Assembly: GCA_022561335.1 (NCBI GenBank)
Contig: JADFRL010000004.1
Location: 23,817-47,816 of the forward strand
Length of the DNA: 24,000 nt
Source: Patescibacteria group bacterium
GTDB lineage: Bacteria > Patescibacteriota > Minisyncoccia > Phycocordibacterales > JACZSL01
Direction of reading: 5' to 3'
Shown here: positions 17,540 through 19,320 of the stretch, piece after piece
How the letters are laid out: the number at the start of each line of letters is the position of its first letter
Numbering within the stretch: the first letter of the stretch is position 1
The notes under the pieces: generated by a model
Seen by the model: only the letters and a program-made list of their open reading frames with translations
What the model was told of the DNA's origin: nothing
Database searches by the model: none
Translations under genes and position numbers: made by a program

Positions 17540-17815
17540 TTAATAAACAATGTTAAAACTTGAAAATGCATCTTGCGGTTTTCTCCATACAACGTCAACG
17601 TGGTCAATGTAAGCAAGAAGGGAACCTTTTTCCAGATGTGTTATAAATTCCTCCAGTACTTCTTTTGGACCTTGCACAATTACTTCTACTGAGCCATCGC
17701 TTATATTCCTAACCGTCCCAACAAGATTCAAGACTTGGGCCCTGCGCCTTACAAAATCTCGAAACATAACCATCTGCACTCGACCCGTAATACTGCATTT
17801 AATCTCTTGTGTCAT
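17540..17815 (-). CDS. acyP: Acylphosphatase
   Basis: 91 aa. ITGRVQMVMFRDFVRRRAQVLNLVGTVRNISDGSVEVIVQG matches the acylphosphatase signatures. Confidence 0.85.
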   Translation of the reverse strand: MTQEIKCSITGRVQMVMFRDFVRRRAQVLNLVGTVRNISDGSVEVIVQGPKEVLEEFITHLEKGSLLAYIDHVDVVWRKPQDAFSSFNIVY

Positions 17816-17886
17816 ATAACTATATTTCTTAATCTAAAGATACAGCAAACTTGTCTTGAATACGTATTATATAACGGTTCGCTTAT

Positions 17887-17913
17887 TTGAAAAGAACTCC
17901 TTTTTAGTATATT
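17887..17913 (+). promoter_or_regulatory. Candidate promoter for tRNA-Val
   Basis: TTGAAA (17887-17892), 15 nt, TATATT (17908-17913), 12 nt upstream of the tRNA 5' end. The spacer is shorter than optimal. Confidence 0.4.
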
Positions 17914-17925
17914 GTTGATACCTTA

Positions 17926-17998
<73 letters not shown>

Positions 17999-18011
17999 CT
18001 ACAAACAATGA

Positions 18012-18045
18012 ACCCAACAGGATGTGTTGGGTAATTTTGTTTATT
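18012..18045 (+). terminator. Rho-independent terminator after tRNA-Val
   Basis: ACCCAACA-GGATG-TGTTGGGT followed by AATTTTGTTTATT. Confidence 0.65.
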
Positions 18046-18047
18046 GA

Positions 18048-18064
18048 GCGGTGAGGGATTTGAA
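18048..18064. repeat. Inverted 17-nt copy of the tRNA-Val T-loop-to-acceptor segment
   Basis: GCGGTGAGGGATTTGAA is the exact reverse complement of 17979-17995 (TTCAAATCCCTCACCGC). Confidence 0.85.
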
Positions 18065-18296
18065 GAGCGGAGGCGGGCGGCGGGGTGAGAGCGTACGATT
18101 TCGTTCAGAGCCACCACGCGCTTGGCGTGTGGGACATTAGTCCGCATTTTTAATAAAATAAGTTCGAGCAAAGTTGTATAATTCCACCAGAATTAAACAA
18201 CTCCGCTAAGTAAAAGCTTAGAAAGCTCCTGTTCTGCCTTCACCCGCCTATCTTTGCGTACTTTAGGGAAATAGTTTAGAACCCGCAAAAGTTTAG

Positions 18297-18323
18297 GAAC
18301 GGCTCAACTCCGTTGAGCCGTTC
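18297..18323. repeat. Palindromic hairpin repeat, copy 2 (AACGGCTCAAC / GTTGAGCCGTT)
   Basis: gAACGGCTCAAC-TCC-GTTGAGCCGTTc. Same 11-nt arms as 15324-15349, with a different loop and a flipped (compensated) closing pair. Confidence 0.8.
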
Positions 18324-18336
18324 AAACTGAAATTCT

Positions 18337-18355
18337 GTGCCCCGGGGAGGAATCG
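18337..18355 (-). repeat. tRNA-Arg 3' fragment (acceptor 3' strand, T-stem and part of the T-loop)
   Basis: gtgccccGgggaggaatcg versus 18660-18678 gtgccccCgggaggaatcg (18 of 19 identical). Similarity stops inside the T-loop. Confidence 0.8.
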
Positions 18356-18610
18356 GTCAGGAGTCAATTATTTTCATATTCACAAACTCATTGAAAATAT
18401 ATCGCTCACGACCCTGGCTCACTCCTTACATCGTTCCGCCTTTCGATTCCATAGACCAAATTTGTGGTCACGAATCACTAAGTATATTTCTTCATTACAT
18501 TTAAAATCTACTAAGTGTTCTCGACCCCGGCTCGACTGTTTTTGCATTAGGAATTGCAAAAACATGTCTCCGCCCGGCACCAAGACACGAATACAAAGCA
18601 GTTTGTATTC

Positions 18611-18654
18611 TAAACCAAAACCACATGGCATTAATGCCATGTGGTTTTGGTTTA
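18611..18654. repeat. 44-bp perfect palindrome adjacent to the tRNA-Arg 3' end (likely bidirectional hairpin/terminator)
   Basis: TAAACCAAAACCACATGGCATT|AATGCCATGTGGTTTTGGTTTA, with 22-nt arms and no loop. Confidence 0.8.
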
Positions 18655-18660
18655 TCTTAG

Positions 18661-18732
18661 TGCCCCCGGGAGGAATCGAACCCCCATCCAAAGCTTAGAA
18701 GTCTCTTGTTTTATCCATTAAACTACAGGGGC
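18661..18732 (-). tRNA. tRNA-Arg (anticodon TCT)
   Basis: GCCCCTG TA GTTT AATGGATA AAAC A AGAGA CTTCTAA GCTTT GGATG GGGGG TTCGATT CCTCC CGGGGGC A. There is one A.G mismatch at 31:39. CCA is not encoded. Confidence 0.88.
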
Positions 18733-18867
18733 AATTAGAACATTATTATACTATACCGTTCGATTAGGAATCGATCCTTACAGGATCAGTACAGGTTGTC
18801 GATATTTTATCTCGCTTCACTCACAAAATATCTGGCAACCTTTTGAAACAGTGCCCCGCACTGCTTC

Positions 18868-18921
18868 AACCCCCATCCAAAGCTTAGAAGTCTCTTGTTT
18901 TATCCATTAAACTACAGGGGC
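18868..18921 (-). repeat. Exact 54-nt duplicate of the tRNA-Arg 5' portion (positions 1 to ~54), lacking a functional T-arm/3' acceptor
   Basis: 18868-18921 is identical to 18679-18732 (aacccccatccaaagcttagaagtctcttgttttatccattaaactacaggggc). The sequence beyond the T-loop breakpoint diverges (ctgcttc versus ggaatcg). Confidence 0.9.
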
Positions 18922-18999
18922 GTGGGGCGCAAAGATGAACGAGCAAGCCGAACCGCAAAAGATAATTTCTCATGAATATAGCAGTAGCACCTAATACAG

Positions 19000-19320
19000 T
19001 CAACGAACACTCGGGATGGGAGGGGCCACACGTTTTAACCGCTCAAATCGATTTTCTTTTTCCTCAAAAAATTCAAGTGTATAACCAAGCAGGGCCTCAT
19101 CTATTGTGTTACCAACTGCCGTGCTATCGATACTTTCAATAACAAATAGATCCCCTTTATCAATACGCATAAAGAGACGTACATTTAAAGCAGTCATGAG
19201 TACAATGACAACAACAAATACTATGAGAATAAATGACCAATCGCGATTCACATGAGCTATGTCTTCATGGCCGTAGCGAGGTGCCCTTTTCTGGAATATG
19301 CTTTTTATACGCTCAAACAT
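19000..19320 (-). CDS. Hypothetical single-pass membrane protein, last gene of the pil cluster
   Basis: TM helix WSFILIVFVVVIVLMTALNV. Lies 13 nt downstream of pilO. No family recognised. Confidence 0.55.
   Translation of the reverse strand: MFERIKSIFQKRAPRYGHEDIAHVNRDWSFILIVFVVVIVLMTALNVRLFMRIDKGDLFVIESIDSTAVGNTIDEALLGYTLEFFEEKENRFERLKRVAPPIPSVR

Follow-up and report, generated by a model that had tools for sequence, protein, structure and literature searches.

Candidate insertion modules with folded cores and antisense guides at tRNA gene ends in a Patescibacteria group bacterium

The tRNA-Arg and tRNA-Val locus

The window analyzed here, a 24,000-nucleotide stretch of DNA (G000:C30:23817-47816), comes from a Patescibacteria group bacterium with a 667-kb genome (G000; 36 contigs, 89.7% complete), whose order-level relatives have genomes of 0.4-1.2 Mb, sizes in keeping with a bacterium of the candidate phyla radiation. 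It contains a minus-strand tRNA-Arg(TCT) gene surrounded by pieces of itself and faced by a plus-strand tRNA-Val(TAC) gene, with small folded units, here called modules, behind both. These modules are the subject of this report. The window genes are chromosomal housekeeping genes (PilM/N/O, UppS, an RluA-type synthase, L19, YqgF and an acylphosphatase); a look-up of the L33 protein returned no record. A phage origin of the window was rejected, since its tRNA genes alone were common to the phage database and its open reading frames (ORFs) are chromosomal.

The intact tRNA-Arg gene stands between an exact copy of its own 5' part and a near-exact copy of its 3' end (Table 1). The 5' copy ends in ...GGGGGTT and the 3' copy begins with CGATTCC, so both break at canonical positions 55|56, within the T-loop, and repeats of this quality are far above chance in 1.6 kb. 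In the Rfam scan, the 5' copy gave a weak partial tRNA match (26.2 bits). The original prediction, made from the bare sequence, had described the intact gene, both copies, their shared breakpoint, and the 44-nt palindrome with two smaller hairpins, and all of these were recovered. It had also read a degenerate anticodon-arm copy of tRNA-Arg into ~18183-18255. The 21-mer concerned (18213-18233), which matches the tRNA-Arg anticodon arm at 18/21 positions, lies in the 3' stem of the tRNA-Val element, and its motif TTAGAAA(G/C)CTC recurs at the equivalent place in an element behind the tRNA-Leu gene of another genome (L017); it is a family motif and not a tRNA-Arg relic.

Table 1. Features of the tRNA-Val and tRNA-Arg stacks, in window coordinates
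Feature	Position	Strand	Evidence or remark
tRNA-Val(TAC), anchor of the plus-strand element	17926-17999	+	ARAGORN, Rfam
Terminator-like hairpin between tRNA-Val and guide	18012-18032	+	Follows tRNA-Val
Val guide, antisense to tRNA-Val T-loop, T-stem, acceptor 3' strand and trailer	18029-18064	+	36-nt inverted repeat, 81%
Degenerate Val core, ending in decayed tRNA-Val end copy CCTTCACCCGCCTA (18237-18250)	18065-18250	+	Sequence, strain comparison, fold
Small multi-copy palindrome GAACGGCTCAAC-N3-GTTGAGCCGTTC	18297-18323	.	Between the two convergent stacks
Displaced tRNA-Arg end CGATTCCTCCCCGGGGCAC	18337-18355	-	18/19 vs 18660-18678, both starting CGATTCC
B2, shortened B-type module: guide GGAATCG (~18441-18447), junction AAAG, core, displaced tRNA-Arg end	18337-18458	-	72.4 bits
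B1, B-type core only (model positions 19-121), without closing guide helix or own tRNA copy	18448-18589	-	92.1 and 86.3 bits; z -4.9
Trailer hairpins: 44-nt perfect palindrome (18611-18654) and GAATACAAA/TTTGTATTC (18587-18610)	18587-18654	-	Sequence
Intact tRNA-Arg(TCT)	18661-18732 (or 18660-18732)	-	ARAGORN; Rfam 61.2 bits
Spacer with -10-like TATAAT (18745-18750), 12 nt before intact tRNA-Arg	18733-18765	-	Part of 189-bp unit
Truncated displaced T-arm copy GGATCGATTCCT, canonical ~52-63	18766-18777	-	One mismatch; at 3' end of A module
A-type core GGTTGCC-GATATTTT...AAAATATC-GACAACC, then GATCC-TGTAA-GGATC	18772-18841	-	Sequence matches, fold
12-bp hairpin TTGAAGCAGTGC-GGG-GCACTGTTTCAA	18843-18869	-	Fold, z -4.7 for whole A unit
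Dead 5' copy of tRNA-Arg(TCT), gene bases 1-54 (canonical 1-55)	18868-18921	-	54/54 identical to intact gene
Promoter P1, TTGACT-17-TATATT with TG	18975-19003	-	10/12 match; ~45 nt upstream of 5' tRNA-Arg fragment

The segments between the tRNA-Arg pieces had been described as ORF-less and as holding only hairpins. The first part stands, as an ORF scan found no credible frame there (the sole one, of 90 aa, runs through the tRNA itself), but the second does not: the segments contain conserved multi-copy modules, and their cores, their antisense guides and the opposite-strand tRNA-Val element had been overlooked. The A-type core (18771-18844) matches three other places in its own genome at 80-88% and a stretch of B1 (18466-18536) eight others at 72-84%, and both also have matches in genomes of other families. 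In the predicted fold of B2, the guide GGAATCG pairs with GAUUCC of the displaced tRNA-Arg end. The trailer hairpins of the intact gene hold the place of a variable hairpin found behind every restored gene end in the family, while the 12-bp hairpin stands where complete A-type copies have a restored 3' end, a terminator and a guide. In the 5' flank of B1 (18563-18585), where a guide would be expected, lies TTGGTGCC, complementary to GGCACCA, the mature CCA-bearing tRNA-Arg 3' end; the CCA is not gene-encoded, and this 7-mer complementarity could be due to chance. The -10-like TATAAT of the spacer may act as a promoter element, judging from its sequence.

Searches of metagenome and genome collections for related loci gave no match; contigs of the locus from other samples were obtained via exact-protein look-ups of two flanking genes and then aligned to the window. 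As the original prediction had proposed, the locus was compared between relatives, and it does differ among strains whose DNA is 98-99.8% identical. The window layout is colinear at 99.55% in L053 and partly covered in L052, L055, L057, L058 and L059. In L056 and L060, the P1 leader is joined directly to a single intact tRNA-Arg gene and exactly one 189-bp unit is missing, comprising the 5' copy, the hairpin, the A core, the T-arm scrap and the TATAAT spacer. These two strains retain B1, B2 and the displaced 3' end, so the 5' and 3' fragments stem from different events. The earlier proposal that one ~510-bp segment with its own tRNA had been inserted does not fit this: what lies behind B2 as the 3' fragment is a displaced gene end, and the 5' fragment forms part of the separate unit whose presence varies among strains. 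Since that unit is flanked by 54-nt identical repeats, the difference could reflect insertion or repeat-mediated deletion, in either direction.

A second strain difference spans both stacks. In L052, 357 bp (18077-18433), from the interior of the Val core to the interior of B2, are replaced by 244 bp that hold other family members, including a well-preserved B-type core (83.7 bits) with a tRNA-Val-type end of another allele. No donor of this block was found among the compared loci, where the best match was 77-81%. Because both breakpoints fall in conserved parts of the elements, the elements appear to act as portable homology. Partial 5' duplications of tRNA-Arg also recur: genome G001, of the same family, carries a 19-nt 5' partial duplication and a 95-nt promoter-bearing insert upstream of tRNA-Arg(TCT). 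That insert (L012, G001:C8, reverse complement ~1690-1575) contains two hairpins and a TTGGCA...TATAAT promoter, and its hairpin GTGAGAnAnCCTGGGAGGnTnTC also precedes an A-type copy on G000 contig C11.

Compared with another genome of the same family (G002; L010, G002:C4), in which tRNA-Arg and tRNA-Val are co-oriented, 183 nt apart and directly followed by the acylphosphatase gene, the plus-strand tRNA-Val is inverted; the inversion may have used inverted tRNA-end/guide repeats. Within the decayed Val element, 60 nt (18089-18148) with the hairpin CCACGCGCTTGGCGTGTGG and a terminator-like GGGACATTAGTCC plus T-run are found at 81-85% in the genomes of five other families and, by sequence, may represent a further module type. 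The palindrome between the two stacks has near-identical copies on contigs C35, C24, C17, C11 and C27 and in G016 (L013) and is a separate REP-like (repetitive extragenic palindrome) or terminator-like repeat family.

A module family at tRNA and tmRNA gene ends

The same layout recurs in G000 behind Ser-gct, Gly-gcc, Asp, Ser-gga, Trp, Tyr and Arg genes: an intact tRNA, a variable hairpin, a guide, CGAAAG, a core ending in ...CTTAGTGAyTCGTGAC and a second gene end. This second tRNA copy spans C56 to one to three bases beyond the discriminator, and the guides (8-13 nt in this genome) are the reverse complement of the T-loop and T-stem 3' strand of their own tRNA. Across the family, a complete module consists of a replacement gene end (56 to ~74-76), a variable hairpin, a 7-20-nt antisense guide, an (A)AAAG junction and a conserved core, and units measure 120-230 nt. 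Every complete copy is accompanied by a 19-21-nt duplication of gene positions 56-74/76. What appears to be the gene's original trailer and terminator follows the displaced copy (e.g., at tRNA-Asp; L017), so that the unit looks like an insert at 55|56 supplying the gene with a new 3' end. In formal terms, an insert placed directly behind the gene and finishing with a duplicate of the gene tail would fit equally well.

A covariance model of the B core, built from eleven own-genome copies and representing this one core type, found 12 strong copies in G000 and ~750 matches in 121 of 151 sampled genomes of the order, with up to 19 per genome. The remaining ~20% of the order's genomes had no match, and outside the order only five genomes in a phylum-wide sample did; the modelled B core is thus concentrated in one order and patchy elsewhere. 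Among 43 B copies from other genomes, 38 have a tRNA or transfer-messenger RNA (tmRNA) gene upstream on the same strand, 29 of them at 22-79 nt and nine stacked at 201-407 nt, and the anchors include at least 15 different tRNA species in addition to tmRNA. Guides are complementary to positions 56 up to 76, with best matches of 20/20. Of the cases in which the working gene end and its displaced copy differ, 65 have a guide matching the working end and 11 a guide matching the copy. Since most displaced copies differ by truncation or indels, this count marks the displaced copy as debris and is compatible with either end copy travelling with the element.

The consensus B core folds into a three-way junction (46 distinct copies). 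In this fold 95% of cells are paired, compared with 31-43% when partners are slid, and 33 of 38 pairs have changed on both sides; none of 500 shuffles reached the observed values. One near-invariant pair is G·U in 41 of the 46 copies, and G·U exceeds A·C by 90:12 overall and by 49:12 when that pair is excluded. This asymmetry indicates that the fold is selected on the tRNA-sense single strand, whether as RNA or as one strand of DNA.

The modules had no counterpart in the resources consulted. Rfam 15, applied to the whole window at gathering score and to 17800-19100 at E<=10, returned tRNA and chance-level matches only, and a literature search found no description of the family. Judging by sequence, no catalytic-core Rfam match to group I/II introns or known self-cleaving ribozymes was present; a hammerhead core was rejected by eye because the junction strands AAAG and GG do not fit, and HDV (hepatitis delta virus) and other ribozyme cores were rejected by inspection of the junction sequences. 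No promoters of the modules' own were detected, and the modules lie behind terminator-like hairpins.

Some copies are associated with genes. At G000:C24:37227-38950, two near-identical Asp-type B units, whose apical stems differ by compensatory changes, surround a gene for a 361-aa helical-repeat protein; this protein was set aside as a mover, being helical and not evidently a recombinase. Elsewhere on this contig (G000:C24:24591-25070), an 86-aa GIY-YIG gene lies behind tRNA-Gln(CTG) between 84-nt direct repeats beginning at T-loop C56, with the junction ...TAAC|CGAG, and a B module with a tRNA-Gln-type displaced end lies 5 kb downstream (C24:29544-29683). This arrangement suggests a long cassette array. 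Furthermore, several module copies lie ~0.1-1.2 kb from the ends of G000 contigs C7, C11, C18 and C28, and contigs of related strains also end at the tRNA-Arg repeats. The modules probably fragment metagenome assemblies of the Candidate Phyla Radiation (CPR).

Insertion, candidate movers and competing explanations

The layout and its recurrence at many tRNA genes, the strand-specific fold, the differences among strains, and a lack of an integrase, a reverse transcriptase or an associated Y1 transposase are demonstrated by these data. We are highly confident that the tRNA-Arg fragments are junction duplications of members of the module family. The family itself likely spreads by insertion at gene ends, given that a cognate guide and end copy are found at many genes, that copies are stacked and bracket cargo, and that strains differ. 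Our reading of the locus as a whole, held with somewhat less assurance, is that at least four small insertion modules, ORF-less and with strand-specific folds, are stacked here and attach at the T-loop-to-3'-end segment of tRNA and tmRNA genes: B1 and B2 behind tRNA-Arg, the guide-less A-type module fused to the dead 5' copy upstream, and the decayed module behind tRNA-Val.

Alternatively, the modules could be resident, host-serving, tRNA-linked non-coding RNAs with a layout like that of the RtT repeats in the E. coli tyrT operon, their copies having arisen through local duplication and gene conversion. Such RNAs would be made together with the tRNA or after it, and their guide/end-copy helix, which mimics an acceptor-T minihelix, would let tRNA enzymes process them. 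The strand-specific fold, the conserved G·U pair and the excess of G·U over A·C are all consistent with this explanation, as are the conserved apical loop and stem sequences, an orientation that always follows the tRNA, the retention of a module in all three strains sampled at tRNA-Ser-gga, and the lack of an evident mover. However, the position of the modules behind terminator-like hairpins, with no promoter detected, fits it poorly, and guides still match the working gene where displaced end copies are decayed or truncated. Copies are also stacked, vary between near-identical strains and bracket unrelated cargo, while about a fifth of the order's genomes do without a module and matches outside the order are rare. 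Furthermore, local duplication cannot have given more than 15 different tRNAs their own cognate guide and end copy, and the modules show no similarity to the RtT family (RF00391). We therefore regard resident RNAs as an unlikely source of the whole pattern.

The one tyrosine recombinase of G000, which is XerC/XerD/XerA-like, is encoded on a contig other than the window's. It scores 231 bits on the XerC model and 105 bits on TIGR02249 (cut-off 265), a score far enough below the cut-off to reject its identity as an integron integrase. Nearly all of the 151 genomes of the order have exactly one such Xer-like gene, including complete genomes and those with 16-19 modules, which argues against several integrases as movers.

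A tentative model, possible rather than probable, is that the module moves as a cassette via site-specific recombination inside the 56-74 identity block. The end copy, variable hairpin and guide would form an imperfect palindrome beside the core, and a single strand of it could rebuild a duplex image of the T-loop and 3' end. By analogy with known folded sites, this single-strand site would be recombined with the chromosomal gene by a tyrosine recombinase acting in trans, for which no candidate other than the single Xer-family enzyme was seen, and the gene's old 3' end would be pushed downstream by the module. Folded-site recombination of this kind would make sense of the strand specificity and the variable centre, of the fixed breakpoint and the stacking, and of the lack of element-borne genes. 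More broadly, and just as tentatively, the family may be a class of protein-less mobile cassettes in which the target is programmed by pairing of the guide with the last ~10-20 nt of an essential RNA gene, the folded strand (DNA or RNA) is the recombination substrate, and movement is provided by a Xer-type recombinase or by the tRNA-processing machinery. The original prediction had offered, as one of two options, a very small non-autonomous tRNA-targeting element mobilized in trans; the small tRNA-targeting element comes close to the evidence, while the trans-acting enzyme is conjectural.

Several points weigh against insertion modules moved in this way. Movement was not seen directly, and a search for a precise empty site of a B module found none, as the two other strains compared at tRNA-Ser-gga have the module too. 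A simple deletion between 54-nt repeats would suffice to explain the 189-bp difference, and the absence of this unit is documented by two MEGAHIT contigs from one study. Part of the locus is debris, as B1 and the local A copy lack guides. The pair counts for the B core come from an alignment that was fitted to the covariance model, and tolerance of G·U suits RNA at least as well as folded DNA, so the core might be a functional RNA whose spread is secondary. The model would also give no account of how a module gains a new guide and end copy; the likeness to integron attC and CTX sites is an analogy of layout; no dif-like site was identified at the modules; and we know of no affinity of Xer-type enzymes for T-loops.

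The modules could be non-autonomous derivatives of HUH/Y1 transposons of the IS200/IS605 or REP/RAYT (REP-associated tyrosine transposase) type, with the guide pairing with a cleavage or target site as in IS608. The hairpin-rich, strand-specific ends and the pairing of an internal sequence with its flank are reminiscent of these elements, and G000 does contain a 217-252-aa ORF (G000:C35:1134-1370) with a weak Y1_Tnp/RAYT-like match (Pfam E 9e-9; NCBIfam 23 bits vs a cut-off of 80). Similar Y1-like genes of ~220-260 aa are present in 91 of the 151 genomes of the order, often in several copies, but they are not associated with modules: G052, G026, G003 and the single-contig G049 have 9-12 modules and no PF01797 match, whereas G043, G088, G012 and G102 have 4-13 PF01797 matches and no module. 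A Y1/HUH transposase was therefore rejected as the mover. IS200/IS605 elements, moreover, insert without a 19-nt duplication and use guides of 4-5 nt, and we consider such an origin improbable.

Eroded attL/attR footprints of integrase islands or prophages, serially integrated in the tRNA-Arg T-loop and later deleted to remnants resembling cis-mobilizable elements, were the other option considered, and eroded footprints of serial integrations had been named in the original prediction. Such islands classically leave a T-loop breakpoint and direct repeats of the 3' gene end, and they are known to stack. The bounded DNA, however, consists of conserved family cores at hundreds of tRNAs instead of random leftovers, and ~750 copies in 121 genomes contrast with a single Xer-like recombinase, and no other, in nearly every genome. 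No IMG/VR viral contig matched the B-core motif, the window has nothing but its tRNA genes in common with the phage database, and the integrase-bearing relative that had been envisaged, an autonomous parent element with a cognate integrase, was found neither in the 151 genomes of the order nor in viral contigs. Footprints of this kind are thus a poor explanation, and we give them very little weight. Much the same holds for a retroelement, which is improbable given that no reverse transcriptase (PF00078) was matched in the 89.7% complete G000. An assembly artefact, with collapsed or chimeric repeats producing the duplicated tRNA pieces, can practically be dismissed: several related-sample contigs do stop in or close to the repeats, where one scaffold also has an N-gap, but L053 shows the full layout in colinear order, and five more independent assemblies, from other samples and produced with different assemblers, cover parts of it.

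Mobility of these modules, if borne out, would mean that a selfish element is present in hundreds of copies in ultra-small bacteria whose 0.6-1 Mb genomes have hardly any transposases. By rebuilding the ends of essential tRNA and tmRNA genes, the element would invade them safely, and its site would apparently be chosen via a short antisense stretch. Much of the puzzling tRNA debris in CPR metagenome assemblies, and many of their contig breaks and local rearrangements, would then have an explanation; the inverted tRNA-Val and the strain-specific block swaps would be examples. The cores would serve as portable homology for recombination between strains. It would also be a compact natural case of base-pair-programmed insertion and, if guide-programmed cassettes are the true explanation, a minimal reprogrammable system for gene-end insertion peculiar to ultra-small bacteria. 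If the core is instead a functional RNA, the modules would represent a widespread, uncatalogued RNA class linked to tRNA expression.

Relation to known tRNA-associated and folded-site elements

Islands and prophages that integrate into tRNA and tmRNA genes reportedly include a T-loop sublocation class, described by Williams in 2002, and the tycheposons of Prochlorococcus reportedly belong among these tRNA-integrating elements. Like the modules, T-loop islands cross over in the T-loop, supply a new 3' end and displace the old one as a direct repeat, and serial insertions form arrays behind the gene. The direct repeat of the tRNA 3' part, beginning in the T-loop, is indeed present at both ends of the insert here, as for elements of tyrosine integrases; no integrase was found inside the bounded segment or in an intact relative. 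Unlike such islands, the modules (120-230 nt) have no integrase inside and none to spare in the genome, and a conserved folded core and an antisense guide set them apart from island att sites.

Cis-mobilizable elements (CIMEs) are deletion derivatives of streptococcal integrative and conjugative elements that are bounded by att sites and for which the cognate integrase is identifiable. Their att-type repeat bounds, their lack of recombination genes, and their supposed mobilization by an enzyme in trans resemble the modules. For the modules, in contrast, no parent element was found, and core conservation extends over more than 100 families of genomes.

Integron attC sites and the CTX attP(+) site are cases in which a folded single strand serves as the recombination site, and integrative mobile elements of the CTX type that exploit Xer (IMEX) use XerC/D. 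As in the modules, an imperfect palindrome with a variable centre lies beside the recombination point and the structure is strand-specific; the strand-specific palindrome seen here is a resemblance of form only. Integron cassettes and CTX likewise build up at a single fixed site, at times with cargo genes, and a housekeeping-type tyrosine recombinase is the sole candidate for the modules. Unlike integrons, the modules lack IntI and no attI/Pc platform or dif-like site was identified, while the arms of their palindrome copy the target gene.

The IS200/IS605 elements, together with the ORF-less palindrome-associated transposable elements (PATE) and REP elements, share with the modules single-strand hairpin ends and an internal guide that pairs with the target. 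The module guide is, however, 7-20 nt instead of 4-5 nt, the target is duplicated over 19-21 nt, and there is no association with Y1; neither co-occurrence with Y1 nor insertion without target duplication 3' of a 4-5-nt target, the marks of PATE and REP, was observed.

The RtT RNA (RF00391, E. coli tyrT) is also made of repeated ORF-less units behind a tRNA, each with a ~19-nt copy of the tRNA 3' end. To our knowledge it has no antisense guide, and RtT is confined to few loci; 17800-19100 gave no RF00391 match at E<=10. The module family thus departs in a defining trait from each known family compared. Its gene-lessness is shared with CIMEs and with miniature inverted-repeat transposable elements (MITEs), while its guide logic is that of IS608 and of intron guide sequences.

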